63,368 nucleotides of DNA, from positions 1 to 63,368 of the IMG/VR virus record IMGVR_UViG_3300027971_000057; one strand, 5' to 3'. The DNA is from a virus. Taxonomy: Duplodnaviria > Caudoviricetes. The position numbers and the translations under genes were made by a program. How positions within the stretch are numbered: position 1 is the first letter of the stretch; every line of letters starts with the position of its first letter. A model generated the notes under the pieces. That model saw nothing but the letters and a program-made list of their open reading frames with translations, searched no databases and was not told the DNA's origin. Shown here piece after piece: positions 12,057 to 63,368 of this stretch.

Positions 12057-12363
12057 ATACCCCCGGGGGGCCGTATTTTTTATAGTTTGACAAGAAATAG
12101 TATGTGCGGGTGAGGAATAGTGTTCACGTAGCATCGTCGTCGGGTCACCGAAAAGGGGATGTGGGGGGTATCTGGGGGTCGCCATCGGGTATCTCACGGG
12201 CTAAAACCGAGTATCTGCTAGGTGCTGGGCAGGGTATCGACCCCGATCAGGAAGGGGGTTTTCTACAATGAAATTGTCTCTGGTGCATAGGGCATCGGAG
12301 GCAGCAAACCAAATGAGGACAGAGTGTCCTCGAATCAACGGGCTAAGCCCAGAGGAAAACGAA

Positions 12364-12852
12364 ATGACCAAGATCAACACCACCGCCGCATTCTCCGCCC
12401 TCGACGCATTCGCTCTGGCAGGCGACACGGCACGCACCACGTTGTGCGTGTCGCTCATCGCCGCAGGCATCGTGACCCGAGAGGATGCATTGCCCGTCGT
12501 CACCGCGTGGGCCGCAGAGCGCTGCGATTGCCCGCTCGTTGACGGGCAAAAGCGGATGAAGGGCCAGATGGTTTTCGACGCTACGTCGCCGAACTATTCC
12601 AACGCCCAGAAGACCCGTGGCCGCGTCCTCGACGCATTCGCGCCAACCGAGGCCCGCGTCGAGCGTCAGGAGGCCGCAGCAGAGGCCGAGGCCAAGGCCA
12701 CCAAGGCCAAGGCCACCAAGGCCGAGAAAGCCGCTCACGCGGCCTTGCAGGAGGCTCGCAAGGCCGTCGCCGAGGCCGAGGCCGCATTCTTGGCTGCGTG
12801 CGGTGGCAACAAGCCCCGTGCGAAGGCTCTCGACAAGGCTCTGTCTGCCTGA
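12364..12852 (+). CDS. early hypothetical protein with Ala/Lys-rich tail
   Basis: GAGGA RBS after palindrome; AKATKAKATKAEK. Confidence 0.75.
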   Translation: MTKINTTAAFSALDAFALAGDTARTTLCVSLIAAGIVTREDALPVVTAWAAERCDCPLVDGQKRMKGQMVFDATSPNYSNAQKTRGRVLDAFAPTEARVERQEAAAEAEAKATKAKATKAEKAAHAALQEARKAVAEAEAAFLAACGGNKPRAKALDKALSA

Positions 12853-13023
12853 GCGTCTCGGTCTGTCCCTATTTAATCCCCTGTCAATCGCGGAGCGTGG
12901 GTCAGACATCGGGGGTCTGACCCTATTTAATTCGAGGACACGCTGTCCTCGAATCCCCTGTCAATCGTGGCAGGGGAAAACCATTCGAGGACACTTTGTC
13001 CTCGAATCAACTGGGAGAATGAG

Positions 13024-13257
13024 ATGAGCAAAAGAGTCTTTCGTGTAGTGTCCGTCCTCAACTACGAGGATCTGAACAAGTGCTTCACGTGGCGTGGCGG
13101 GCTGCAAAAGAATGCCAAGACTGTGCGGCACACCAGCCTGCGCTCGGCCTTGGAAGAGGCACGATGGGCTGCGTCTCATGAGTACACGGCGTTCGTCGTG
13201 CGGCGCAATGCTCGTGGCTGGGAAGAAGTCGCCTATTGCCCGCCCTTGGCTCGTTGA
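13024..13257 (+). CDS. early hypothetical protein
   Basis: GGGAG RBS after palindrome; 77 aa MSKRVFRV. Confidence 0.7.
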   Translation: MSKRVFRVVSVLNYEDLNKCFTWRGGLQKNAKTVRHTSLRSALEEARWAASHEYTAFVVRRNARGWEEVAYCPPLAR

Positions 13258-13348
13258 GCGTAGCCCCTTGGCCCCTGCTCGGGGTCTTGGGGGTGCGTTT
13301 GCACCATTCGAGGACAGAGTGTCCTCGAATCAACCTAAAGGAAATGAC

Positions 13349-13582
13349 ATGGCTACCACCATAAAAGAGATCCGCGACACAGTCGCCAGCATGGCCGTTG
13401 AATTCGACGCGCCCTTCCGTTTCGATGAGGGCAACACCACGTGCGGCATCACGTGGAAACTCAACTTCAACGAGATGGGGCGCGACATCCTTGTCGCGAA
13501 AACCAAGACCGCGTTCCTGCACGACATCCAGACCTACCGAGAGGGCTTGCGCGACGGGCGCAAGTGGTGGGATCGCGGCTGA
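13349..13582 (+). CDS. early hypothetical protein
   Basis: AAGGA RBS after palindrome; 77 aa MATTIKEI. Confidence 0.7.
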   Translation: MATTIKEIRDTVASMAVEFDAPFRFDEGNTTCGITWKLNFNEMGRDILVAKTKTAFLHDIQTYREGLRDGRKWWDRG

Positions 13583-13620
13583 TGTGAAGCAAACCATTCG
13601 AGGACAGAGTGTCCTCGAAT

Positions 13621-14040
13621 GGTAGGTTAGTGATCACTAACCCCATAATCTTCAAATTTTGAAGGTATCCGGGCGTATCCAATCTTTTGCACGCTCGCCA
13701 CCCCGCCAGACACGCGCAGAGCGAGCATTCATGCGGCTCCCAGCGTTTTCGGACAGACCTCTCTATATATATATATTTATTAAAGAATAGATAGATAGAT
13801 GTGTTTGTGTGTCCACCCTTTTGCCCGCGCTTTGATTGTTGCTCATCCTTTGTCTTTGTTCCTTAGGGGTGTTAGTATTTGTTTTCAGATGGATACGTAG
13901 GTGCAAAATCGCGCAGAGCAAGCATTGGCGCGGGCTCCAGCCTGTCCAGCGTGGTGGCGGCGCGGAATAGCGAACGGATACCTTGGATACTTGAAGATTA
14001 AGATCCTTACAGACTAGATCACTTGGTCTGTTTCGTGTAC
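13621..14040. other. putative replication origin
   Basis: ~420 bp without a credible ORF; AT-rich core flanked by inverted GTATCC/GGATAC boxes and other inverted motifs. Confidence 0.55.
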
Positions 14041-14130
14041 ATTCGAGGACACTCTGTCCTCGAATCGTTGAGCGTGGCGTGAGGGGCGTGCGCTCAACTT
14101 CCTCTGTTTCCCCTTGTTTTGGAGAGTGTG

Positions 14131-14907
14131 ATGAGTAAAAACGAAGTGTTGGGCTACGTGGTCTACGAAGGCCCGAGCGCTGTGGATGGCGCTCCGATTG
14201 TGGTGATCGTCAACAAAATCGAGGGCGATAGCGAGAACGACAAGACGGGCGGTCTCGTGCAGACCTTCATCATCCGTAGCGACATCCCTCCTTACGATGC
14301 GCTCAAGAGCGGGGATGACGCCTCGGTGTGCGGTGACTGCAAGCATCGCCCTGTCCTTGCCGAAGAGAGCGGCGATCCGCCGTGCTACGTCAACGTGCTG
14401 TGGTCTGTGCGTGCCGTGTACGACGCCTACAAGCGTGGCCGCTACACCAAGGTCACCCCGGCACAAGCAGGACGCCTACTCAAGGGCAAGCGCATCCGCC
14501 TCGGAACCTACGGGGATCCGGGCGCTGCACCGCTCAAGATGTGGCAAGCCCTGATCGCCTTCGCCGATGGGCACACGGGCTACACCCACCTGTGGCAGCG
14601 CTGGACGCACCACGCCACACGCAAGGCATGGCAGAAGTTGGTCATGGCAAGCGTGGACAGCGTCGGTGAGTACCTCATCGCCAAGTCTCTGGGATGGCGC
14701 ACATTCAGGGTGGCTACGGACTGGTACAAGATCGACAACGAGATCCGCTGCCCTGCATCGAAGGAGGCGGGCAACAAGACCACCTGTGCAGAGTGCATCC
14801 TGTGCGGCGGGACTACCACCCAGACCGAGAAGGACATCCTGATCATCGACCACGCTAGGGGTTTCGGCAAGCGCGTGATCCCGATACTGGCTGCTGTCGC
14901 AGCGTAA
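14131..14907 (+). CDS. Cys-rich putative metal/Fe-S protein (phage gp88-like)
   Basis: CGDC...CY, RLGTYGDP, TGYTH, CPAS...CAECILC. Confidence 0.55.
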   Translation: MSKNEVLGYVVYEGPSAVDGAPIVVIVNKIEGDSENDKTGGLVQTFIIRSDIPPYDALKSGDDASVCGDCKHRPVLAEESGDPPCYVNVLWSVRAVYDAYKRGRYTKVTPAQAGRLLKGKRIRLGTYGDPGAAPLKMWQALIAFADGHTGYTHLWQRWTHHATRKAWQKLVMASVDSVGEYLIAKSLGWRTFRVATDWYKIDNEIRCPASKEAGNKTTCAECILCGGTTTQTEKDILIIDHARGFGKRVIPILAAVAA

Positions 14908-14965
14908 TCAGTCACCAACCATTCGAGGACATTGTGTCCTCGAATCAACCCAGAGGAGAGAGAAG

Positions 14966-15172
14966 ATGAGTTTGAAACGTCTACACACATTCGCAACGCT
15001 TACTACTGATGCGCTGACCACGAAGGTATTCAAAGATACCGAATGGGGCGAGTATGTCGTCAGGCTATACCGCAACGGCATCGAGCAGGTAATGGCTAGT
15101 TACCATACCATCGACGAAGAAGACGCAGTATCTACTGCATGGGCAATGATTAACCAAGGAGAGAAAGTATGA
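14966..15172 (+). CDS. early hypothetical protein
   Basis: GAGGAG RBS after palindrome; 68 aa. Confidence 0.7.
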   Translation: MSLKRLHTFATLTTDALTTKVFKDTEWGEYVVRLYRNGIEQVMASYHTIDEEDAVSTAWAMINQGEKV

Positions 15173-15435
15173 AGAACTACATAGTGTGGGACGTACTGAC
15201 CCGCGACTGGTGGGACGGCAACGAATTCAGCAGCAAGCCACCGCTCGTGGTCGATGCGTCAACGCTGGCGGCACTACGTCAGACCTACAAGGGACGCAAG
15301 ACCCTGCTTGAGACCGAGGTGGTGTCGTTGCCGACCATCACCGAGGAAGAGTTCGAGCGACAGAAGGCAGAGAAAGAACCCACGCCCTTCATGCCGTGGA
15401 TACGCAAGTCGAAGCAACGCACCGACTGCTATTGA
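15169..15435 (+). CDS. early hypothetical protein
   Basis: AGGAG RBS, 4-nt overlap. Confidence 0.7.
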   Translation: MKNYIVWDVLTRDWWDGNEFSSKPPLVVDASTLAALRQTYKGRKTLLETEVVSLPTITEEEFERQKAEKEPTPFMPWIRKSKQRTDCY

Positions 15436-15498
15436 TAGACCGCCGCCAGTCGGTCACTGGCAACCAACCTAACGGGCAACGCCCAAGGAGAAACTGAA

Positions 15499-16116
15499 AT
15501 GGCTAAGGCACAAACTTTCGCGCAGCGCGTCAAGGCTGACACCACCACCAACGCAGGGATCCGCCACATGATGGTGATCCGTAGCGACAACATCGCCCAC
15601 CCCGAGGTGAAGCGTGTGTTCAACGCGATCCCTGCCGCGTATAAGCGGGAACGCAACTGGTGCAACAAGGCGATGGACTACGTCGGCCCCAACCAGAAGA
15701 TCTACGTGGACGCGAGCCAGCACTCATCCATCGTGAGTATCTACATCACGATCTACGATCTGGACGACCTGAAGACGGACAAGCGGCTGTCGCGCTTGCT
15801 CACCACCTTCCTCACGCCCGAGTGGGTGGCTATGCCCACGACGGACAACGCTGGCTCCGAACGCTATCGTGGGCGTACGTACACGTTCAACAAGACGACG
15901 CCTATCCACACCAAGGAGACGCACCCATCAGTCAAGTGGCTGCGTAAGAACGACAAGCAGTCATGGGATCTCGACGACCACATGAAGAAACCTCTGACCA
16001 TCCGCGTATCGGTGAGCGGCTACGTCAAGGAGGACAACACCACGTGCCGCATCGAGACGGTGGAGGTGCGCGAAGAGGTCATCAAGACCGAGGTCAAGCG
16101 GCTGGTCTGCGCCTGA
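15499..16116 (+). CDS. early hypothetical protein
   Basis: AGGAG RBS; 205 aa. Confidence 0.75.
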   Translation: MAKAQTFAQRVKADTTTNAGIRHMMVIRSDNIAHPEVKRVFNAIPAAYKRERNWCNKAMDYVGPNQKIYVDASQHSSIVSIYITIYDLDDLKTDKRLSRLLTTFLTPEWVAMPTTDNAGSERYRGRTYTFNKTTPIHTKETHPSVKWLRKNDKQSWDLDDHMKKPLTIRVSVSGYVKEDNTTCRIETVEVREEVIKTEVKRLVCA

Positions 16117-16176
16117 CGGGTGACGGACGATTCGAGGACATAGTGTCCTCGAATCAATCAACAACAGGAGAAAGCA

Positions 16177-16347
16177 ATGAAGTTTGAGATCGTAATCAGA
16201 GCGGTAGTAACCAAGGTCGCCGTCATCGAGTCGGACGACAGAGAGACCGCAATCGGCATCGCAATGGACGAGTTCACCACCGAGCACGACCCATACGACG
16301 ATGAGAAGTACGAGCAGGACGTTATCAGCATCAAGGAGATGAAATGA
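16177..16347 (+). CDS. small acidic protein (56 aa, not in ORF track)
   Basis: AGGAG RBS after palindrome; MKFEIVIRAVVTKVAVIESDDRETAIGIAMDEF... Confidence 0.7.
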   Translation: MKFEIVIRAVVTKVAVIESDDRETAIGIAMDEFTTEHDPYDDEKYEQDVISIKEMK

Positions 16348-16442
16348 AAGACAGAAACAAAACATGGGGGCATCCGATGGACTGGGTGCTGTTCGTGGGG
16401 TTCGTAGCGGTAGTCATCGCTGCGTGTATGGGTTGGATTTAA
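16344..16442 (+). CDS. small membrane peptide (32 aa)
   Basis: ATGA overlap; DWVLFVGFVAVVIAACMGWI hydrophobic stretch. Confidence 0.55.
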   Translation: MKDRNKTWGHPMDWVLFVGFVAVVIAACMGWI

Positions 16443-16456
16443 CTAGGAGAACTGAA

Positions 16457-16675
16457 ATGAAGATGTATGAACTGATCAAGCCCGGAGCACGGGTCACGGT
16501 GTTCTGTGACCCAATAACTTGCGAACGTCTGGAGGGCATAGCCAAAGTCACCTCGGTGCTGCGCGTCGAGCCTTGGCAAGATGTCCACGGACGCAACATC
16601 GTGCGCTGCAACGTGCGCTTTCCGAAAGAACGTCACGGTCTCGTGCGTGACGTTTCCACACTAGCCCCCGCATAA
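16457..16675 (+). CDS. early hypothetical protein
   Basis: AGGAGAACTGAAATG leader. Confidence 0.65.
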   Translation: MKMYELIKPGARVTVFCDPITCERLEGIAKVTSVLRVEPWQDVHGRNIVRCNVRFPKERHGLVRDVSTLAPA

Positions 16676-16686
16676 GGAGAACTGAA

Positions 16687-16887
16687 ATGCTTGTCGAACT
16701 CAACGATGACGAACTAGCGCTGATCAGCAGCGGATTGATGCAGTACGACCTTGCCCTAGCGCAGTGGCACAAGGCCAGCACCGAGGCCGACGAGGCCAAG
16801 CGGCTGGATGCGCTGATCGACAGGTCGATGGATCTGCGGCGCAAGTTGTGGAAGATCCGCCAGACGGCCAAGGCCACGCTGGTCTGA
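16687..16887 (+). CDS. early hypothetical protein
   Basis: AGGAGAACTGAAATG leader. Confidence 0.65.
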   Translation: MLVELNDDELALISSGLMQYDLALAQWHKASTEADEAKRLDALIDRSMDLRRKLWKIRQTAKATLV

Positions 16888-16965
16888 TTCCCACACCTGT
16901 GGGAGCGTGTATAATGTTAGACACCGCAGCCAGTCGGTCACTGGCACAACCCAAGGAGAAATCAA

Positions 16966-17238
16966 ATGCGGTACTACATCGGAACAGTCGCCAACTTCTT
17001 TAACGAAAGGGAATTCCACACGCCTGTTAGGTTCTGCACCACAGGCGAGCCATACGACGCGCTCCACGCCATAGCGAAAACATTCTGGGGTAAGTCAGCC
17101 ACCCCCACGAACAGCATCTACAGCGATGAGGCGTGGGACTTCGGAGACATCATCGTCGCAGGAGAAATTCATCTGGAGGTAACCAAGGAGGAGTTCGACA
17201 AGATGTTCATCTTCCCGCACCTCGGAGAAACAGTTTAA
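16966..17238 (+). CDS. early hypothetical protein
   Basis: AGGAG RBS after 58-bp cassette. Confidence 0.7.
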   Translation: MRYYIGTVANFFNEREFHTPVRFCTTGEPYDALHAIAKTFWGKSATPTNSIYSDEAWDFGDIIVAGEIHLEVTKEEFDKMFIFPHLGETV

Positions 17239-17319
17239 GCAATAAGAGGACAGTCTGTCCCCGAATCCGCCGCCAGTCGGTCTACTGGCACTTTGTTATT
17301 ACCTTTGGAGAAATGAATC

Positions 17320-17901: not shown

Positions 17902-18002
17902 GTGACAACCCTGCTCCCACACCTGTGGGAGCGTGTATAATGTTAGACACCGCCGCCAGTCGGACACTGGCAACTTAACGGGCAACGCCCAAGGAGATAG
18001 AA

Positions 18003-25079: not shown

Positions 25080-25685
25080 ATGAAGCTGATAGATCTGACA
25101 GGGCGCACTTTTGGGCGGTTAACAGTGCGAGGGCGTTCGCCCAGAACGTATCAGACGATGTGGGAATGCGTGTGTGCGTGCGGCGAAAGCGGCATAGTTG
25201 TATCAGGAGTCAATCTTCGCACAGGGCACACAGCATCTTGCGGGTGCTTACGTGAAGAGCTTCGTCCCCTGTATGCAAAGAAGCGTGACTTTACCGGGCT
25301 AAAGAACCCCCGCGCTAAGGCAAGCACGGACAGGAACGGCGGCGTTCATGTGCCCTCAGACAGTGTCTGGTACAAGCGGGCAGCAGGGATTTTTTACGCC
25401 GCCAAGAAAAACGGGGTTCCCGTAGAGTTTGATTCTGTTGCACAGCTTGCGTCATATATCACAACAATTCGCCCTGATAAATGTCCAGTTTTTAATCAGC
25501 CTTTTGTGGAACGGGGGGCGGGCTTTAGTAACTGGTCTCCCAGCATAGACAAGCGGGATCCTAGCAAAGGATATGTAAAAGGAAACATTCAGGTTATTAG
25601 TATGCTGGCTAACTGCATGAAAAGAAATGCAACGCCCGAGCAACTTAAACAATTCGCCCAATGGGCGCTGGAGGATAAGAGATGA
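25080..25685 (+). CDS. free-standing HNH-like endonuclease
   Basis: DLTGRTFGRLTV...WECVCACG...SCGC; PSIDKRDPSKGYVKGNIQVISMLANCMK. Confidence 0.85.
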   Translation: MKLIDLTGRTFGRLTVRGRSPRTYQTMWECVCACGESGIVVSGVNLRTGHTASCGCLREELRPLYAKKRDFTGLKNPRAKASTDRNGGVHVPSDSVWYKRAAGIFYAAKKNGVPVEFDSVAQLASYITTIRPDKCPVFNQPFVERGAGFSNWSPSIDKRDPSKGYVKGNIQVISMLANCMKRNATPEQLKQFAQWALEDKR

Positions 25686-27649
25686 GTAAACCCTACGATA
25701 GGATTTTGACAATAGATTTTGAAACGCGCTGGGATAGTAAAGTGTATACTTTACAAAAGTTAACCACCGAGGAGTACATACGAGATGAGAGATTTCGAGC
25801 GTTTGGTTGCTGCTTCCACGAGTATGGGAGTGAACAGCCAATTGAATGGGTTCGAGGAGAGTACCTACCTGCGTTCTTGGCAGACATCGACTGGGGACGA
25901 ACCGCTGTGCTTGCACATAACGCCCAGTTTGATATATCGATCCTTGAGTGGAGATTCGGCATCCGCCCCGCATTCATCTTCGACACGCTATCGATGGCGC
26001 GGGCTTTGCGCGGCGTTGAGGTTGGCAACTCCCTCGCCAAACTTGCGTATGATTTTGGTCTTCCCCCCAAAGGGAAAGCCGTACATTCGACCGATGGTCT
26101 CCTCGAACTGGGGGCGGACGTGGACTTTGAGCTTGGAGAATACTGCAAACACGACGTTTTTCTCTGCGAGCGAATCTTTGAAAGATTGGTTGATGGATAC
26201 CCAGTCAAAGAACTTCGACTGATCGACCTGACGCTGAAGATGTACACGCGCCCCATGCTGGTACTGGACGAGCAGATGCTGATGGAAGCGTTGGTAGAGG
26301 AGAAAGAGAAACGTGAAGAACTCCTTCAGAAATGTGGCGTGGATGAGGCTGCGCTTGCTTCAAACCCTCAATTCGCGGCCATCCTTGAGAGGCTCGGAGT
26401 ATCGCCGCCTCAAAAGGTCAGCAAGACAACGGGCAAACAAACACTCGCGCTCGCTAAAAATGATGCAATGTTTCAGGCGTTGCTCAACTCCGACAACGAG
26501 GATGTTGCCCTGCTATGCGAGACTCGCCTTAAAGTTAAATCCACTACTGAAAGAACACGTGCGCAAAGATTTCTGGACATTGCATCGCGTGGCACGCTTC
26601 CTGTTCCGCTGACTTACTTCGGCGCAAGCACGGGGCGGTGGACTGCCAGCAAGGGCAGCGCCATCAATATGCAGAACCTGAAGCGCGGGTCGTTCCTACG
26701 CAAGGCCATCATGGCCCCCGAGGATCACCAGTTGGTGGTGGGTGACCTGAGCCAGATCGAAGTGCGTGTGCTGGCGTGGCTGGCCGACTACGATGCCATG
26801 CTCGACATCTTCCGCGCTGGCGGTGATCCATACGCACAGTTCGGCGCTCAGATGTTCAACATCCCCGGCATGACAAAGGAGTCCCATCCGGGCCACCGCC
26901 AAAGTGCAAAGTCGGCTTTACTAGGGGCGGGTTTCCAGCTTGGCTGGTCGTCGTTCGCTGCCCAGTTGTTGACTGGCTTCCTCGGTGCGCCGCCCATGCG
27001 CTACGACAAGGCGTTCGCCAAGCAGTTGGGCGTTGACGGCGAGTACGTCGAGAAGTTCCTCGACTGGGAAGACAACCTCAAGCGCATGGAGAAGATTCCC
27101 CACATATGCACGAAGCAGGAGTTGCTGATCCATTGCCTCGCGGCGAAGAAGATCATCGACAAGTATCGGGAAGCAGCGCAGCCCATCGTGTCCTTCTGGG
27201 CGCTGTGTGCGTCCCTGATCGAGCATAGCCTGTACAAGGGCAACGAGTACAAGCACAAGAACCTGATCTTCCGCCGTGGTGAGATCGAGTTGCCTAGCGG
27301 GATGCGGTTGCTCTACCCAGATCTGCGCCAAGAGAAAGACGAGGAAGGCAAGAGCTTCTGGTGCTACGGGGAGAAGGGTGATAAGATCTATGCAGGGAAG
27401 ATCACAAACAACGTCACGCAGGGCGTAGCCCGATGCGTGATGACGGATGGTATGTTGCGCGTAGCCAAGCGCTATCCGGTTGTGGGAACGGTTCACGACG
27501 AACAGATCGTCTGTGTGCCAGATGCGGACGTTGACTTCGCCAAGACTTGGGTCTTGGAGCAGATGACGTTAACTCCAAAATACCTACCCGGTATTCCGTT
27601 GGCAGCGGATGGCGGGGCGCATAGGCGCTACGGTTTAGCAAAGAATTGA
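25682..27649 (+). CDS. polA: family A DNA polymerase with 3'-5' exonuclease
   Basis: ExoI IDFET, ExoII HNAQFD, ExoIII YCKHD; motif A DLSQIEVR, motif B RQSAKSALLG, motif C VHDE. Confidence 0.95.
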   Translation: MSKPYDRILTIDFETRWDSKVYTLQKLTTEEYIRDERFRAFGCCFHEYGSEQPIEWVRGEYLPAFLADIDWGRTAVLAHNAQFDISILEWRFGIRPAFIFDTLSMARALRGVEVGNSLAKLAYDFGLPPKGKAVHSTDGLLELGADVDFELGEYCKHDVFLCERIFERLVDGYPVKELRLIDLTLKMYTRPMLVLDEQMLMEALVEEKEKREELLQKCGVDEAALASNPQFAAILERLGVSPPQKVSKTTGKQTLALAKNDAMFQALLNSDNEDVALLCETRLKVKSTTERTRAQRFLDIASRGTLPVPLTYFGASTGRWTASKGSAINMQNLKRGSFLRKAIMAPEDHQLVVGDLSQIEVRVLAWLADYDAMLDIFRAGGDPYAQFGAQMFNIPGMTKESHPGHRQSAKSALLGAGFQLGWSSFAAQLLTGFLGAPPMRYDKAFAKQLGVDGEYVEKFLDWEDNLKRMEKIPHICTKQELLIHCLAAKKIIDKYREAAQPIVSFWALCASLIEHSLYKGNEYKHKNLIFRRGEIELPSGMRLLYPDLRQEKDEEGKSFWCYGEKGDKIYAGKITNNVTQGVARCVMTDGMLRVAKRYPVVGTVHDEQIVCVPDADVDFAKTWVLEQMTLTPKYLPGIPLAADGGAHRRYGLAKN

Positions 27650-27657
27650 GGTGCATC

Positions 27658-28173
27658 ATGTTAACTGTTGAACGTGTGCGAGAGCACCTTGACTACGATC
27701 CTTTGACAGGCGTCTTGATATGGCGCATTTCTCGGCAACGAATTGCTAAAGGATCTGTGGCAGGGACAAAAATGCGCAGCGGGCATATTCGCGTCAAACT
27801 GGATGGTGTAGGTTACCTTGCGCACAGGCTTGCATGGTTGCACTGGTATGGCGTAGAGCCACCGCCGTTTCTTGACCACATTGATCGCTGCCCTGAGAAC
27901 AATGCTATTGCCAATTTGCGTGCCGCAACCAAAGCACAGAACGGGCAAAACCGCCGTGATTCAAGAGGTGTAAGTTTTCACAAAGCAACAAAAAAGTGGC
28001 AAGCGTACATAACTAACGAGGGCGTAACAAAGTACTTAGGGCTTTTCCTGACAATGGACGAAGCAATATCGGCACGACACGCCGCGATGCAGGCGTTGTG
28101 GACACATATGCCGGGGATTCCTCTGGCCGCTGACGGCGGCGCTCACCGCCGATACGGAGAAGCTAAAAACTAG
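27658..28173 (+). CDS. HNH endonuclease with AP2-like domain
   Basis: AHRLAW...LDHIDRCPENNAIANLR; GVSFHKATKKWQAYI...YLGLF; ends in a copy of the PolA C-terminus. Confidence 0.9.
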   Translation: MLTVERVREHLDYDPLTGVLIWRISRQRIAKGSVAGTKMRSGHIRVKLDGVGYLAHRLAWLHWYGVEPPPFLDHIDRCPENNAIANLRAATKAQNGQNRRDSRGVSFHKATKKWQAYITNEGVTKYLGLFLTMDEAISARHAAMQALWTHMPGIPLAADGGAHRRYGEAKN

Positions 28174-28182
28174 GAGAAGCAA

Positions 28183-28569
28183 ATGCATGAAGGGCTTGCA
28201 CTAGGCCACGCAAGGGCAGACGAGGCGGCTATGCACGCAGGAGATAGCTGGGTATCGCTGGCTATTGAAGCGTTCAGATCACACGCAACCACTAACAAAC
28301 TTTTTACAACAGAAGAAGTTAGACAGGCATTCCCAGACTTGCCTAAGCCGCCTGACACACGCGCATGGGGGGCCGTACCCCGCCTTGCGCAAAAAGAAGG
28401 AATGGTCGTGCCGCACGGTTGGGTACGCGCCAGCAGTCGGCTAGTTCACGGCAGATACGTATGCCTGTGGGAATCAAGAATACACAAAGGAGAAGAAAAT
28501 GGTAGAAGTGATTATCGACTACGCATACCCATGCATGATGGCCGAGACGGCGCTCAGGAAAGTGCATGA
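28183..28569 (+). CDS. hypothetical protein
   Basis: AGGAG RBS; FTTEEVR...PPDTRAWG. Confidence 0.65.
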   Translation: MHEGLALGHARADEAAMHAGDSWVSLAIEAFRSHATTNKLFTTEEVRQAFPDLPKPPDTRAWGAVPRLAQKEGMVVPHGWVRASSRLVHGRYVCLWESRIHKGEENGRSDYRLRIPMHDGRDGAQESA

Positions 28570-28699
28570 CCATATGCTGCACGGTAACTACGATGCTGCT
28601 ATCGAGGAGTCCATGAAAGTTTTGGTGGAAGCCAAGATCATGTTGAACTCAATCAAAGAAATGAGAGGAAAAACAAATGCTGATACCCAAGACGTTTGA
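28499..28699 (+). CDS. hypothetical protein
   Basis: AGGAG RBS; IDYAYPCMMAE. Confidence 0.6.
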   Translation: MVEVIIDYAYPCMMAETALRKVHDHMLHGNYDAAIEESMKVLVEAKIMLNSIKEMRGKTNADTQDV

Positions 28700-28976
28700 T
28701 CTAGGTGACCGCACGTATACCGTGCGGATGCTGCCTACTATGAACAAGCGTGGCGTCATGGGCGCTACGTATTTTCAAGCCGCACGCATCGAGATCGGCA
28801 AGAAGAGCAAGACCACAGGCGTGGCGTATAGGCGCGAGGAGATCAACGAGACCTTTTGGCATGAGTTGACCCACGCCATCCTCAACGACATGGGCAGCGG
28901 CCTTGATCGTGACGAGGACTTCGTCACTGCTTTCTCCAGCCGCCTTGCCCAAGCCGTGAGTACCGCCAAACTATGA
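28677..28976 (+). CDS. small HExxH metallopeptidase-like protein
   Basis: TFWHELTHAIL...DEDFV. Confidence 0.7.
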   Translation: MLIPKTFDLGDRTYTVRMLPTMNKRGVMGATYFQAARIEIGKKSKTTGVAYRREEINETFWHELTHAILNDMGSGLDRDEDFVTAFSSRLAQAVSTAKL

Positions 28977-29638
28977 AGAATGTTACATGGTCGCATTCAG
29001 CGCTCAAGGACTACGAAGGTTGCGCTAGGCGGTATCACGAGGTGAAGGTACTGAATAAGTATCCGTTCACCGATACCACCGCGACTATCTACGGCAAGGA
29101 GATGCACAAGTCGATTGAGGACTACATCAAGGACGGCACGCCGCTCTTGCCTCAGTTCATGTTCGTCAAGGACATCATCGATGCGAGCGTTGCCAAGGAT
29201 GGGCGCAAGTACGCGGAGTACGAGATGGCACTCACCAAAGACTTGCGACCATGTAACTTCAACTCACCTGATCGGTGGGTGCGCGGTATTGCCGATCTGA
29301 TCATCGTCAACGACGACAACCTGACTGCTCGTGTGATTGACTGGAAGACGGGAAGCAACCGCTACCCTGACCGGGATCAGTTGCGTTTGATGTCGCTGAT
29401 GGTGTTCGCACACTTCCCACATATCCGCCAAGTGAAGTCCGCGCTGCTGTTCGTGGTCAAGGACGACATGGTCAAGCACAGTATGTTGCGCGGCGAAGCC
29501 GAGGATGAGTGGCAGAAGTATCGCGAACGTGTTGCCAAGCTGGAGTCGTCCCATGAGAATGGGGTGTGGAACCCCACACGCACGCCGCTATGCGGCTGGT
29601 GTCCGGTAAAAGACTGCGCTTACAACACGAAGAGGTAA
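28973..29638 (+). CDS. PD-(D/E)XK exonuclease (RecB/Cas4-like)
   Basis: WSHS...C, RGIADL...IDWKTG, QL, CGWCP...C. Confidence 0.85.
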   Translation: MKNVTWSHSALKDYEGCARRYHEVKVLNKYPFTDTTATIYGKEMHKSIEDYIKDGTPLLPQFMFVKDIIDASVAKDGRKYAEYEMALTKDLRPCNFNSPDRWVRGIADLIIVNDDNLTARVIDWKTGSNRYPDRDQLRLMSLMVFAHFPHIRQVKSALLFVVKDDMVKHSMLRGEAEDEWQKYRERVAKLESSHENGVWNPTRTPLCGWCPVKDCAYNTKR

Positions 29639-29640
29639 TC

Positions 29641-29877
29641 ATGGCAAAGCCAAGAAACTACGCGAAAGAGTACCAACGCGATCTCCAGACTGGTAAGTCT
29701 GGCCCGGGATCGGCACAGCACGAGCGCCAACGCGCTCGACGCGCATTCGATGCCAAGGGCGTAGACCGTTCCGGTAAAGATATCGACCACATCAAACCGC
29801 TACGCAAGGGTGGTAAGTCAACTCCCGGAAACTTGCGGCTCCGCAGTAAGAGCGCCAACCAAGGCGACAATAAATAA
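29641..29877 (+). CDS. small HNH-motif protein
   Basis: DIDHIKPLRKGG...NLRLRSKSAN. Confidence 0.75.
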   Translation: MAKPRNYAKEYQRDLQTGKSGPGSAQHERQRARRAFDAKGVDRSGKDIDHIKPLRKGGKSTPGNLRLRSKSANQGDNK

Positions 29878-51553: not shown

Positions 51554-51931
51554 CTATGCGCTGATGTTGGACGCCGTGACAAACAGCGCATCAATCTGCG
51601 CGTCGTTTAACCCTAGCATGGAGGCCAATGCGTTTACGGTAGGAGAATTACGCTCCCAGTCGGTTGCATTCTCAAACGCCAGCCGAGTGATGTTGCTTCG
51701 CGGCAGGGCGTCAATGTAGGTATGCACGGTGTCCAGATAGCCACCAGCAGCGAGCGTGGCCAACGCTTGAAAGCGCGTCACCGACGCAGGGATGGGTGGC
51801 GGTGGCGGTACATAAGGGTCAGGCGTGTTGCCCTCGGCAAGCCATGCGAGATATTGCGGATGTTCAATCGGAACCCATGCGCCATCAATGCGACGAACAC
51901 CCATAGAATCAATAATTGTATAAGTTTTCAT
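51554..51931 (-). CDS. tail fibre assembly chaperone (copy 2)
   Basis: YLAWLAEGNTP; SVTRFQAL...WER...QIDALF; paralog of 53561..53941. Confidence 0.7.
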   Translation of the reverse strand: MKTYTIIDSMGVRRIDGAWVPIEHPQYLAWLAEGNTPDPYVPPPPPIPASVTRFQALATLAAGGYLDTVHTYIDALPRSNITRLAFENATDWERNSPTVNALASMLGLNDAQIDALFVTASNISA

Positions 51932-51933
51932 TA

Positions 51934-53553
51934 TTATAACTCCGCATCTGCTGTAATATAACGCCCGACACCACTGTCGTAGGCATAAAACTGTCCTACT
52001 GCAACTGCAGATGTTGACAGTCTGATATAGTCTATGCCTGCTAATCCTATTGTAGGCGCTGTTGCATTAACAGTAACCCATGCCCCAACAACATTTGCTA
52101 TGGGTACTGCACGCATCGTGACTGGCGTCTTAAAAGGTTCATAAGCATTATATCCAGCGGTTGGAGTAATGCCAGAAACAATCATTGTTCCAGACCCTGA
52201 GGTAGACGCCCAATAATATCTTTGACACAACGCCAACTCCATCCCAATCGGACGTTGCTCGAATGGCGTGGCTACGGGGCCGACTTCTACTTGCAATCCA
52301 GTAACAAACACACCATCGCTTGTTCCAGCAGTACCAACTGGAGTCCATTGAAGTAATACCGCCAGAGACAACGCGCCGCTTGGTATTGTGGCCGTCATGG
52401 AATACCTAGTCCATGTCGTTGTAATCGTATTTGCTTGGTTTGTTGCCGCTTGCCCTGCCCAACTTCCAAGGGTTGCGCTGGTGGCGTTTGCTGCCGTTCC
52501 AGTTATAACTTGAGAACTAAGGGAGCTTCCGCTTGAGGAAAAGTTTGCAGCCGCTTTAGCATAAAAACTAAAAGTAACTGTTTGTCCCTTTAAGTCATAT
52601 ATATTGATAGTCTCAACAACCTGTCCAGCACCAAGTCCACCCGTAAGGGCTGATGCTGAATTTCTGTAGAAATACAAAGAATTGACAAAACCAGTTGGCG
52701 CGTCAGTACTTTGCTGCATGCCTCCCGCTGCGCTTGTTGCCATAACAGCAAAGAAACGATCAACGGTCAAATATGAATAGGTGGTTGTCAATGCAAATGG
52801 GCCAGCCCCTCTTTGAGCCACCCGCATATCCCCATTGATAATCTTATTCCGCAGCCCCGCCAACTGACCACCATTGGCAGAGGCCATCTGCACGTTGCCT
52901 GTGAATGTGCCGGTGGTTCCAGAAACTGCGCCGCTGAACGTGCCGGTGGTGCCAGAAACAGCACCACTAAAAGTGCCGGTGGTGCCAGAAACAGCACCAC
53001 TAAAAGTGCCGGTGGTGGCCGTAACCGCTCCCAACGAACTGCCGTAAGCTAACGCATCGCCAGCCGTTGTCGGCGTAGCGACGTTGGTGATCTTGAAGCC
53101 GCCCATCGAGAAGTCTGCGGTGGCGGTCAACGGCGGACTGGAAATACTGTAGAAACCAGTTGTCCCGTCTGTCCAGATAATTTGTTTTGCACCCGCTACC
53201 ACCGTATAGCCCGTACCCGTGACAGCCGTGGTATTGGCTGGTGCAATCCGCATGGTTGCAGCGTAAGAGGTATCGTTCCAAATTAGGTATATCTTGGGCC
53301 TATTGGGGACGCATAATGTAAACGCAGAGGCTGCTGTTGTAATTTTAACTATCGCCATCCGCGCTTGATCAACTGCCCCATCGTTGGCAATGAGGTATTG
53401 GGGCGTTACAGTAATTGGCACTTCCGTATAGCCAGAGATTGCGCCCTCCAGCAATGTGCCAAGATTGGTGTTGGTTGTATCGCCCCAGACGCCCGCCTGA
53501 TCGCCTGTGGGAATAAGAGATACACGAAGGTTTGGTGAGTAAGTAGTTGGCAT
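51934..53553 (-). CDS. tail fibre / receptor-binding protein
   Basis: WGDTTNTN anchor; RNKIINGDM...QVEVGPVATPFE...LCQRYY head domain. Confidence 0.8.
   Translation of the reverse strand: MPTTYSPNLRVSLIPTGDQAGVWGDTTNTNLGTLLEGAISGYTEVPITVTPQYLIANDGAVDQARMAIVKITTAASAFTLCVPNRPKIYLIWNDTSYAATMRIAPANTTAVTGTGYTVVAGAKQIIWTDGTTGFYSISSPPLTATADFSMGGFKITNVATPTTAGDALAYGSSLGAVTATTGTFSGAVSGTTGTFSGAVSGTTGTFSGAVSGTTGTFTGNVQMASANGGQLAGLRNKIINGDMRVAQRGAGPFALTTTYSYLTVDRFFAVMATSAAGGMQQSTDAPTGFVNSLYFYRNSASALTGGLGAGQVVETINIYDLKGQTVTFSFYAKAAANFSSSGSSLSSQVITGTAANATSATLGSWAGQAATNQANTITTTWTRYSMTATIPSGALSLAVLLQWTPVGTAGTSDGVFVTGLQVEVGPVATPFEQRPIGMELALCQRYYWASTSGSGTMIVSGITPTAGYNAYEPFKTPVTMRAVPIANVVGAWVTVNATAPTIGLAGIDYIRLSTSAVAVGQFYAYDSGVGRYITADAEL
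52907..53016 (-). repeat. 33-bp tandem repeat encoding TTGTFSGAVSG, ~3.3 copies
   Basis: gtgccggtggtgccagaaacagcaccactaaaa x2 plus one variant copy. Confidence 0.9.
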
Positions 53554-53560
53554 ATGTGTC

Positions 53561-53941
53561 CTACGCGCTGATGTTAGAGGCAGCGATAAAGAGATCGTCT
53601 ACTTGGGTAGTGTCTAGGCCAAGCATAGTAGCTAGTGCATTAAGGGTAGGTGAAGTCCGCTCCCAATCCGCAGCATTTTCCCAAGCCAGCCTCTGCACAT
53701 TATCTTCATCCAGCGCAGCAATATGGGCACGGATGGCGGGTAGGTATCCCCCCGCAGCAAGAACCGCCAACGCTTGAAATCGCGTTACCGATACGGGTAC
53801 AGCGGGGGGAGGTGGGACATAGGGCTCAATTGTCGCACCCTCGGGGACTTCAGAAGCGACTGCGGAATAGATACAAGTGCCGTCCTCTTCAATAATGAAG
53901 ACAACTTCGTTCGATGCGTCTGTATAACGATAAGTTCTCAT
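53561..53941 (-). CDS. tail fibre assembly chaperone (copy 1)
   Basis: start MRTYRY overlaps fibre stop; SVTRFQAL...WER...QVDDLF. Confidence 0.7.
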   Translation of the reverse strand: MRTYRYTDASNEVVFIIEEDGTCIYSAVASEVPEGATIEPYVPPPPAVPVSVTRFQALAVLAAGGYLPAIRAHIAALDEDNVQRLAWENAADWERTSPTLNALATMLGLDTTQVDDLFIAASNISA

Positions 53942-55371
53942 GGTATCTCCACTTGCCATGCCAGATATGTGCCTGCATTTGCACTCGTAACCATAGTGCC
54001 ACCGTGACCCGCAGTTATAGCACCAGAGGCGCAACTTACTTGCCACATATATTGATTAGTTCGTGTAGTAGTCGCTGGTACAGAAGTAATGTTGGCTACT
54101 ACCGCAGTTCCGCTCCAACTATAGTCACCAAAAACTCCAGTAGTCTCAAGTATTGTCGGCGTTGTACGCATTAAAACGGGGAAGTTACCAGTAGCAATAT
54201 ACGCTGCCGTAGTTGATGCGTATGCGTTAGCTAACACACCAGTCGTCGTGCCCGCAATGATCTTGTAGTAGTAGCGTTGGCAGAGTGCAGCAACAATAGT
54301 CGATGGCAAACGCTCGAAGGGGGTTGCTACAGTACCCTGCTCAAACTGAACTTGACCGACTGTCCATGTACCGCTGATCTGTGCGCCAACGGTGAAGAGA
54401 ATCTCAATACCTGTGGTTGCTCCCGCTGGGACAGCGATATTGGTGCTGTAAATTGCAGGGGTTGCCGTGACTGTGAACGTGCCCGTGGCAATGGTCGTCT
54501 TGGTGGGAGTTGCAATCGTGCCAAAGGTATCTGCTGTGGTCGTGGCGTAAGATGCCGTCCACGTTACCGAAGTCAGCAATGAGTTTGCCAACTCAACAGA
54601 CAATGTGCAGGTATCCCCCGCCATGTCAAAGCAGTTGTTAGCCTCGATTCGCTGACCAACACCGACTGATGTAACCGCGGCTACACCTGTAATCTGAAGC
54701 CGTTTAGATGTGGCATCTACGCCGTTAACCCGCGCTGCCGTGACGTTACCGCCAACACAGTAAACAAAAAACCTATCAACACAAGGATAGCCTAGAAACG
54801 CAGTGGGAACAGCCGTACCTGCGGTAACCGTGGCAGACGTTGCGTGTTGCGCCAAAAGCATGGAACCGTTGATTATGCGGTTACGCATTCCCGCAAGCTG
54901 ACCCCCACCATTTGTACTAGTCAGGACTGTGTCAGCGGTGAATGTCTTGACCCCAGTGATATTTTGAGCGGTGTTGGTGTAAACACCATTAGTGACGGTA
55001 GCGGAATTACCGTTAATGGAGCCAACAATGGTAGAACTAAAAGTCTTGATGCCGCCAATTGTCTGGTCGCCTGTGGTGTAGACGCCATTCGTTACGGTGG
55101 CAGCGTTTCCTACCAGCGCCCCAGTAAAAGTCGTTGAGTAGATGTTGTTCCACAGCAGAGAGGCAGAGCCTATGGTCTGCGTGTTCGTCACCGTGGGGAG
55201 CAAATTCCCCGTGACGGTGGGGTTGGCGAAAGACAGCCCTGAGATGGTAGTGACTGTGTCGCCCAACTGAAACGTAGTTGTTCCGAGCGTAGTGCCCGTC
55301 GCAAAGTTAGAATCTAACTGCGACAACGGCAGCGTCCCGACTTGGGAGGCAAAGATATAGGGTACGGTCAT
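53938..55371 (-). CDS. second tail fibre / receptor-binding protein
   Basis: RNRIINGSM...QFEQGTVATPFE...LCQRYY; repeated TVTNGVYT. Confidence 0.8.
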   Translation of the reverse strand: MTVPYIFASQVGTLPLSQLDSNFATGTTLGTTTFQLGDTVTTISGLSFANPTVTGNLLPTVTNTQTIGSASLLWNNIYSTTFTGALVGNAATVTNGVYTTGDQTIGGIKTFSSTIVGSINGNSATVTNGVYTNTAQNITGVKTFTADTVLTSTNGGGQLAGMRNRIINGSMLLAQHATSATVTAGTAVPTAFLGYPCVDRFFVYCVGGNVTAARVNGVDATSKRLQITGVAAVTSVGVGQRIEANNCFDMAGDTCTLSVELANSLLTSVTWTASYATTTADTFGTIATPTKTTIATGTFTVTATPAIYSTNIAVPAGATTGIEILFTVGAQISGTWTVGQVQFEQGTVATPFERLPSTIVAALCQRYYYKIIAGTTTGVLANAYASTTAAYIATGNFPVLMRTTPTILETTGVFGDYSWSGTAVVANITSVPATTTRTNQYMWQVSCASGAITAGHGGTMVTSANAGTYLAWQVEIP

Positions 55372-62247: not shown

Positions 62248-63368
62248 TTATCCTACAAGTAGTCTTCGAGTAGTGCCGCCAGAATCGGTAATGGTAACGT
62301 ACCCTGCTTGAGTAACAAGACCGGCGGTATAGGTGCCAAACTTGATGGTGCCTGTGCCTTTTGTTGCCAGCACCAAATTGACGTTAGTGTCTGTTCCGGT
62401 GCCCGTTATCGTCACGTTTGCTGGTGTAGCGCCGCCTGTAGTAGCAGCGCCAGTTATACTGACGTAATTTACAGCAGATGGGGTTGCTGATACCCGCATT
62501 TGATTTGATCCAGCAGAACCACCAAGCGTTGCATTAGTGTTAAAGAAAAGACTGCCGCCGCTGTTGTAGATGCAGGCAACACTAGTTGATGAATCATAGT
62601 ACGTTCTGGTGCTTAATGTTGCTGTATCGCTGTTTCTAAGCATCTGCAACCCACCAGAAGCGCCAGCATTTTGAATGCTTATGCTGGTTGCATTGGAAAT
62701 TGCTGGCGCTGATTGTAAAACAACTTTGCCCGTTCCGGTAATGCCTGTATTACCGCTGGCTACACCATCATCGCCGCTCCATAAGTCTGATATAGAGTAC
62801 GTCCATTGTGTGCTACTACCTAAGCCAACATAAACAAATACCGCGCCTGTATTTATTGGCATTTGGTATAAGGCTATAGCATTAAAATCATTTACTAAAA
62901 AAGCGGAATTTGTCTGATTGACAATGTGGAGCGAGTACCCTATTGGTAGGGTTGTTATGTCTGGCAAATAACAACCGGCACCAGTTCCTGTAAAAAACAC
63001 GTTTTGTGCGGTTGTGCTGTCAAGGTTTGGGCTTGCTGAGTTAACATATGTCTGATAACTTGACAACTTATTGAACGCAGCATTGGCTGACGTTGCGGAT
63101 GTGCCGCCGTTAGCGATTGATAGGGTTGGCAATACTCCAACTGTTGGAATTCCCAGCAAGAAAGAATCGCCGTCTAACCCATCATCCCCTGCTGCACCTA
63201 TTGCTCCAGTTGCTCCAGTTGCTCCAGTTGCACCTGTAGCACCCCGTAATCCCGGTGGCCCAACATCGCCGTCTAACCCATCATCCCCTGCTGCACCTAT
63301 TGCTCCAGTTGCTCCAGTTGCTCCAGTTGCTCCAGTTGCACCTGTAGCACCCCGTAATCCCGGTGGCC
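62248..63368 (-). CDS. C-terminal part of collagen-like tail fibre protein
   Basis: frame of track ORF 62248..63159 stays open to 63368 through [14 protein letters not shown]...GDDGLDGD. Confidence 0.85.

Follow-up and report, generated by a model that had tools for sequence, protein, structure and literature searches.

The 63,368-bp window analyzed here, IMG/VR record IMGVR_UViG_3300027971_000057, is a complete virus record, identified as a phage genome by the record itself and by the phage relatives of its polA gene, and its sequence is present in freshwater and lake metagenomes of 15 studies. Its polA gene, encoding a family A DNA polymerase, is followed by an open reading frame (ORF) for an HNH endonuclease whose last residues repeat the C terminus of PolA in largely different codons. 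The features of this locus are listed below, under names that follow the assignments argued for in the next section.

25682-27649, + strand: polA ORF, family A DNA polymerase with a 3'-5' exonuclease domain, 655 residues, ending in PGIPLAADGGAHRRYGLAKN and a stop
25682..27583, + strand: polA body, native part (Pfam DNA_pol_A 4.7e-21, DNA_pol_A_exo1 5.2e-05)
27584..27649, + strand: copy 1, cassette-borne replacement polA tail, 21 codons LPGIPLAADGGAHRRYGLAKN plus TGA, in frame with polA
27648..27652, + strand: GAGGT ribosome-binding site of the HNH gene, read from the sequence, overlapping the polA stop
27658..28107, + strand: HNH_3/AP2-like endonuclease core, 150 codons, ending in ALWTH (Pfam, PHROG, structure model and fold match)
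28108..28173, + strand: copy 2, displaced native polA tail and in-frame end of the HNH ORF, 21 codons MPGIPLAADGGAHRRYGEAKN plus TAG
27584..28107 (equivalently 27587-28110), + strand: inserted cassette, 524 bp (identity breakpoints, and contigs that skip a net 524 bp)
28183..28569, + strand: downstream gene, 128 residues, unknown function, directly after polA in HNH-free relatives, with PHROG matches to families of unknown function only

The HNH ORF starts with an ATG at 27658, 8 bases past the polA TGA and in a frame that differs from that of polA, and runs for 171 codons to a stop at 28173, its C terminus being PGIPLAADGGAHRRYGEAKN. The two tails lie where the initial annotation had placed them and, as it had stated, share 19 of 20 residues with different codons at 16 of the 19; at the DNA level they agree at 41 of 60 bases. 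The 20 duplicated residues are real, but the repeat actually comprises 21 codons (27584-27646 and 28108-28170), with an extra codon, for L in polA and for M in the HNH ORF, preceding PGIPL. The boundary of the cassette is ambiguous within the repeat and can be shifted by 3 bases. The cassette consists of the replacement tail, its TGA, a ribosome-binding site, and the nuclease core. Lacking a stop codon, this core continues in frame through the native polA tail as far as the native polA stop. That stop overlaps the ribosome-binding site of the downstream gene, just as the TGA of the cassette overlaps that of the nuclease. PolA itself is one ORF, colinear with its relatives up to its final residue. 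When the whole window was compared with itself in six frames, with no end-at-stop filter, the tail pair scored E = 4e-11, and a reading of the hit list by eye found the polA/HNH pair to be the only repeat in which two ORFs end at their stops in a common peptide.

Native and imported polA ends

A search of IMG/VR returned 325 related polA stretches, of which the best 80 (66-94% identity) were fetched. The polA end is visible in 72 of these 80 loci, eight contigs, including that of the closest relative L003, stopping earlier, and the 72 loci provide 43 distinct natural tails. Aligned with these HNH-free relatives, the check that the initial annotation had called for, copy 2 (28111-28170) matches the ancestral polA end, with 52/60 bases identical to L010 and 51/60 to L009, and copy 1 (27587-27646) matches none, agreeing with each of the 43 natural tails at 37-43 of 60 bases. 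The resemblance continues beyond the tail, L009 having after polA the same TAG-GAGAGGCAAATGCATGAAGG junction and a downstream protein 84% identical to that of the window; the corresponding protein of L060 is 73% identical. Per 60-nt block, identity to L008-L010 is 52-54/60 in 27402-27581, then 37-38/60 in the block of copy 1, and all 20 codons of copy 1 differ from those of the L010 tail. Among the 325 pairs of natural tails with at least 18 of 20 residues identical, none has 16 or more re-spelled codons, and 6 share 41 or fewer of 60 bases. From the pattern of identity, we therefore reconstruct the native sequence as the polA body up to about 27583, followed by copy 2 and the downstream gene, with 27584-28107 as the insert. 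These comparisons identify copy 2, the one fused to the HNH ORF, as the native polA end, and copy 1 as an imported replacement. The earlier proposal that one copy restores polA in recoded form while the other is fused to the nuclease is thereby upheld and given its polarity, the upstream copy being the replacement and the downstream copy the ancestral end. In none of the 72 related loci is polA followed by a second tail or directly adjoined by an HNH gene; HNH homologues of 33-39% identity are found further downstream of polA in L059 and L038.

The cassette is present or absent at one fixed site among related genomes. In addition to the 72 polA ends, related-phage contigs (86-92% identical) from other lake metagenomes join 27567 to 28106 or 28108, replacing 538 bases by 14 others or 540 by 16, which makes a net difference of -524 bp in both cases. 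In these HNH-free contigs, the polA body runs straight into copy 2. Bridging contigs with at least 31 letters on each side come from X4 (two contigs) and X8 (one), shorter-sided ones from X3, X4, and X8, and all represent relatives, that is, a different strain from that of the window. X4 also contains contigs identical to the window across the left junction (0 differences), and a 96%-identical X3 contig, from another study, covers 26945-28357 including the cassette. In X8, no contig covers 27612-28015 and a nearly identical contig ends at 27567, an observation that was not used as evidence.

The same architecture occurs in a second IMG/VR phage contig, L083, whose PolA is 68% identical to that of the window (451/664) and likewise ends in PGIPLAADGGAHRRYGLAKN. 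Its polA is followed by TGAGGT, an ATG, and an HNH ORF that ends in WTHSAQNADGGAHRRYGLAKN and whose core is identical to that of the window at 85 of 150 positions. Copy 1 of L083 shares 50/60 bases with copy 1 of the window, all differences in the 20 codons being synonymous, and 36-46/60 with natural tails, which copy 2 of L083 resembles. Since the re-spelled tail is shared by the window and L083, we conclude that tail, stop, ribosome-binding site, and nuclease have been inherited as one unit, and the synonymous nature of the changes shows that the replacement tail is under purifying selection as a protein. A search of IMG/VR with the replacement-tail pattern returned the L083 contig only, and a scan of IMG/VR with a C-terminal alignment (A2) yielded one true case among 37 loci, again the L083 contig. 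Because the X3 contig spans the whole arrangement, contigs with 0 differences cross the left junction, and L083 has the same layout, an assembly artefact is excluded for the tail pair.

The polA gene is a mosaic (25682-27583), with recombination tracts within the polymerase gene. In 25859-26700, most blocks match L003 and L008-L010 at 49-60/60, with dips to 42-47/60; in 26999-27400, identity to L008-L010 is about 65%, with 56-60/60 per block to L003; in 27402-27581, identity to L008-L010 is back to about 88%. Upstream, a second nuclease gene (25080-25685, + strand) abuts polA, its stop overlapping the polA ATG. This gene has no Pfam match but has hits in the PHROG endonuclease, HNH, and endonuclease VII families (5e-23 to 8e-11); homologues are absent from all 80 related polA loci, and the self-comparison shows no duplication at its ends. 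Likely mobile nuclease genes thus flank polA on both sides. A DNA search of cultured phages with 25682-28600 gave no match, the nearest cultured phages being about 31% identical by protein. Compared with solved structures, PolA aligned significantly over residues 219-427 only, the region from motif C to near the end not reaching significance.

The HNH nuclease and its tail-bearing relatives

The initial annotation had labeled the downstream protein an HNH-AP2 endonuclease. The HNH part of this label stands, given a Pfam match to HNH_3 (4.4e-11, 42.7 bits against a cut-off of 24.8), a match to the PHROG HNH endonuclease family phrog_99 (1.2e-56), and the invariance of D73, H74, N82, N86, N95, and N98 in 10 aligned sequences. 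The AP2 part falls below the Pfam cut-off of 33.3 bits (E = 0.02 and 15.6 bits for the window, 2.7e-4 for L083, 2.6e-5 for L087) and rests on fold matches and on relatives, many HNH homologues carrying PF00847. In the AlphaFold model, the predicted local distance difference test (pLDDT) score is 71-95 over residues 1-150, taken in 10-residue blocks, and below 50 over residues 151-171; the modeled fold is complete in residues 1-150, where the HNH part is followed by three strands and a helix. Its best fold match is the intron-encoded HNH homing endonuclease I-HmuI (1u3e, E = 4.5e-4), and local matches to AP2 domains have a probability of 0.98 and a root mean square deviation of 1.6-1.8 over 47-48 columns.

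A homology search with the HNH protein gave 597 hits, and among the 120 clusters listed, 7 have a polA tail at the C terminus. P0001 is 99% identical to the nuclease of the window, with L in place of the window's E, P0002 is 79% identical, and P0003, P0004, and P0005 are 72% identical, whereas P0011 and P0026 (44-45%) have a different junction. The tail of P0004 is exactly the variant of the L027/L029 polA clade (..PLGADGGVH..), and that of P0005 exactly the variant of the L004-L006 clade (..PLNADGG...AKG). In all 10 tail-bearing HNH proteins, the distal 14 residues correspond to a natural polA variant. Closer to the junction, the first seven residues of the tail are divergent in P0003, L083, and P0026, and P0011 lacks part of them. 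P0006 and P0007 (59-60% identical), which have no tail, end a few residues past WTH, which therefore marks the end of the nuclease proper, in agreement with the AlphaFold model. A metagenome scan with alignment A1, run with very general patterns, collected 80 HNH relatives of 31-50% identity, none of them with a polA tail. A protein search with residues 128-171 only matched P0001 and P0002, this query being too short for the database.

We also scanned 119 other HNH loci for C-terminal duplications. Of the 20 rows obtained, 17 were paralogous genes or low-complexity frames, and the only duplications were those of L086-L088, where a 46%-identical HNH gene (L087, 2774-3447) starts at the stop of a gene for a 77-residue DUF6321 protein. 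The HNH and DUF6321 proteins share their last eight residues, AARKRWGC, with 18/24 bases in common and 6 of the 8 codons re-spelled. The ending ..AAR.RW[GD]C is native to the DUF6321 family, being present in 12 of 12 fetched homologues. In a comparison with HNH-free IMG/VR loci, of which 46 out of 80 fetched contained the motif, the downstream copy agreed with L211 at 24/24 bases and with L203-L206 at 22-23/24, with the same next gene, and the upstream copy agreed at 20/24 at most. Sequence comparison thus shows the same layout and the same direction, with the native copy downstream, at DUF6321, a gene unrelated to polA.

In the L086-L088 HNH proteins, the AP2 profile match includes the borrowed tail and reaches profile position 53 of 54. 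The host-derived DUF6321 tail may here stand in for the end of the AP2 helix.

Proposed homing at the polA end and its alternatives

We consider it probable, with good confidence, that a free-standing homing-endonuclease cassette of the HNH_3/AP2 type inserted 21 codons before the polA stop and supplied the gene with a replacement tail. The 21 re-spelled codons and stop of the cassette keep PolA at full length. The nuclease is predicted to nick or cut HNH-free polA alleles at or near the insertion point, which may itself be the cut site, and a co-infecting genome that carries the HNH gene would then serve as the repair template (homing), with the polA body as one arm and the native tail plus downstream gene as the other. 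The re-spelling of copy 1 could serve in three ways: the left junction would no longer be a target, recombination between the repeats, with loss of the cassette, would be prevented, and the broken end would pair with copy 2 and not with copy 1. With its frame continuing into the native tail, the nuclease ORF stops at the native stop, and each homing event would renew the fused tail from the polA allele of the recipient. The fact that fused tails track local polA variants and decay only near the junction fits such a renewal from recipients, selection on the tail being the alternative.

The closest known systems are the 'gene hybrids' formed by mobile endonuclease ORFs (mORFs) in fungal mitochondria, described for atp6, atp9, cox2, and nad3 of Glomus sp. 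and, as cited there, for atp6 of Allomyces macrogynus (PMC3630166). In the accessible text of that article, a foreign C-terminal part in phase with the gene is followed by an endonuclease ORF and then by the displaced native C-terminal part; DNA identity is about 64-81% between the two copies, which differ mostly at synonymous positions, and 91-98% between the native copy and relatives (PMC3630166). As far as that text describes them, the two systems are alike in having an endonuclease ORF in the 3' part of a conserved gene, flanked by two copies of the host C terminus, the upstream one in phase and divergent mostly at synonymous positions, the downstream one native; for the phage cassette, the figures are 68% between copies and up to 87% between the native copy and relatives. 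The cassette differs in residing in a phage and not in a mitochondrion, in its HNH_3/AP2-type nuclease, which is neither LAGLIDADG nor GIY-YIG, in targeting a replicative DNA polymerase, and in a nuclease ORF that starts after the stop, with its own ribosome-binding site, and runs into the native tail. Judged from its sequence, the phage cassette works like an mORF but is a variant of that kind. The layout is thus already documented in fungal mitochondria; for phages, we found no description of it in the openly accessible full-text literature.

Among phages, the seg and mob genes of T4 provide examples of intron-less homing by free-standing endonucleases, whose genes are intergenic or split a gene (PMC2988022). 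They resemble the cassette in being free-standing nuclease genes beside or in conserved essential phage genes, with spread presumed to occur by break repair in mixed infections. In the part of that article open to us, neither a replacement gene end nor a C-terminal duplication is described for them, and 'duplicat' occurs 0 times. The gene-splitting insertions covered there, mobE in nrdA of Aeh1, mobA in gene 60 of T4, and a seg gene in gene 43 of phage 25 (PMC2988022), also place a homing-endonuclease gene inside an essential gene of replication or nucleotide metabolism without an intron or intein. As described in that source, they leave two reassembling pieces, whereas PolA here is a single chain whose end is supplied by the cassette. 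A survey of HNH-AP2 genes reported that 29% of its IPA-HNH genes adjoin DNA polymerase genes (PMC10448857); the domain combination is the same as here, and the available text of that survey does not mention a duplicated or re-spelled gene end.

Several points weigh against homing as the explanation. Cleavage, target site, and homing of this nuclease, which belongs to an uncultured phage, are deduced from sequence. The independent examples at polA that are available at the DNA level number only two, the window with its 96% variant and L083, and the seven other polA-tail HNH clusters are proteins without DNA context. The synonymous sites of the tail are not extra conserved among HNH-free alleles (0.68 against 0.64 elsewhere in polA, p = 0.25), so that no footprint of a recognition site is apparent at the nucleotide level. 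The codon most common among natural tails occurs at 2 of 20 positions in copy 1 and at 1 of 20 in copy 1 of L083, against 12 of 20 for copy 2 and 5-16 (median 12) for natural tails; the random expectation for copy 1 is 6.1/20 (P = 0.02, with a rough proxy for the codon usage of the phage), so that avoidance of natural codons beyond chance is only weakly indicated. These counts give a weak hint that difference from the target was itself selected in copy 1, and a distant, unsampled donor lineage would explain them equally well. Finally, the fraction of identical residues with differing codons between the window and L083 is 0.54 in polA (0.43-0.45 near the 3' end), 0.45 in copy 1, and 0.45 in the HNH core; since this synonymous divergence is similar and polA is mosaic, the cassette could have spread by ordinary recombination after long co-inheritance.

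Selection on the fused tail would imply that it has been co-opted, either as a mimic of the PolA C terminus, through which the nuclease would be recruited to the replisome or a partner of PolA, or because a preserved frame lets translation terminate at the native stop and remain coupled to the downstream gene, whose ribosome-binding site that stop overlaps. The frame is intact in 10 of 10 tail-bearing HNH proteins, always with a natural polA variant in the distal 14 residues, although their cores are only 51-79% identical to that of the window in alignment A1 (44-99% by BLAST local alignment), and ADGGAHRRYG.AK. is retained across three junction types. However, the tail follows the target gene and not the nuclease, a related HNH protein having a DUF6321 tail; the close relatives P0006 and P0007 do without it; and it lies outside the predicted fold, at a pLDDT below 50. 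The lineage variants of P0004 and P0005 and the junction-proximal decay in P0003, L083, and P0026 fit renewal during homing, and detection by peptide match finds in-frame cases only. We therefore view co-option as unlikely. A wider proposal, under which a phage HNH/AP2 clade would specialize in the last codons of conserved genes (polA, DUF6321) and the displaced native tail, kept intact across 44-99% core identity, would be either co-opted, as a polymerase-tail mimic or coupling device, or renewed by frequent homing, is put forward as a rather doubtful speculation.

Alternatively, the cassette could be old, vertically inherited, and now immobile, its patchy occurrence resulting from loss and ordinary homologous recombination and not from nuclease-driven homing. 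The mosaic structure of polA, where 26999-27400 is about 65% identical to L008-L010 and up to 60/60 to L003, and the like divergence of polA, copy 1, and HNH core between the window and L083 would agree with this scenario. The motif residues of the nuclease, however, are invariant in the 10 sequences, and the cassette is absent from L008-L010, whose PolA is 83% identical, and present in L083, at 68%. Moreover, none of the 72 HNH-free tails is a copy 1/copy 2 hybrid or copy 1-like, as deletion between the repeats would leave, and the fused tails match different polA clades. On balance, an immobile cassette seems quite improbable. The native state of the second tail, its frame shared with the HNH ORF, and the existence of HNH endonucleases in phage DNA polymerase introns, together with the fold match to I-HmuI, an annotated homing endonuclease, could suggest a group I intron, an intein, or a programmed frameshift of PolA into the HNH frame, with the second tail as the real polA end, but polA has its own complete tail and TGA, and this reading is barely credible.

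A group I intron was rejected since no Rfam intron family matched at E up to 10 (4 unrelated sub-threshold matches) and polA is complete without splicing, and an intein was rejected in view of the TGA after copy 1, the different frame of the HNH ORF, and the insert length of 524, which is not a multiple of 3. The claim that the element inserted without an intron or intein is thus borne out. No slippery heptamer is common to the window and L083 in the frame overlap of about 25 nt, read by eye, which argues against a frameshift, and since the copy 1 protein is kept between the window and L083 with synonymous changes only, copy 1 must be translated. The single 655-residue PolA ORF excludes a gene-splitting insertion.

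If the homing proposal is correct, a selfish nuclease gene can live in an essential phage gene without intron, intein, or split protein by carrying a spare gene end, a mechanism of fungal mitochondria being extended to phages. A free-standing endonuclease would thereby become an element for which the sites of cutting and insertion can coincide, with built-in immunity and a homology arm that starts from the break, which would explain the clustering of such genes at the ends of conserved phage genes. The junction precisely marks a candidate site of recognition by an HNH nuclease of new specificity, and, should renewal be the right explanation of the fused tails, their state would provide a read-out of homing frequency in nature. 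In practical terms, such nucleases will be mis-called as having odd C termini, and phylogenies or primers based on the last polA codons will mix native and imported sequence.

Other features of the window and its relatives

Downstream of the polA locus, a 78-residue ORF (29641-29877, + strand) lies just after a PD-(D/E)XK nuclease gene (28973-29638); it has a sub-threshold Pfam HNH match (E = 3.5e-4, 21.1 against 21.4 bits) and belongs to a PHROG family of unknown function. In the related loci L038 (1761-2340) and L059 (241-1240), tandem small paralogous ORFs, 40-53% identical, lie upstream of polA and all end in ...AIRARGQ[EA].

Elsewhere in the window, a 40-nt element whose core is palindromic (TTCGAGGACA, 3-4 bases, TGTCCTCGAA) occurs nine times in 12308-17278, at spacings of 53-1209 bp; its copies resemble operator or terminator sites repeated between early genes. 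The two units of a 58-nt direct repeat, 97% identical, occupy 16889-16946 and 17915-17972, 1026 bp apart, with shorter shared blocks nearby. In minus-strand frames of 51555-55131, paralogous structural genes share a 93-residue stretch at 67% identity in neighboring ORFs and a 401-residue match at 31%, and are probably duplicated tail-fibre modules. The ends of the record (32-140 and 63168-63367) carry short tandem repeats, with repeat matches of 15-28 residues in several frames.

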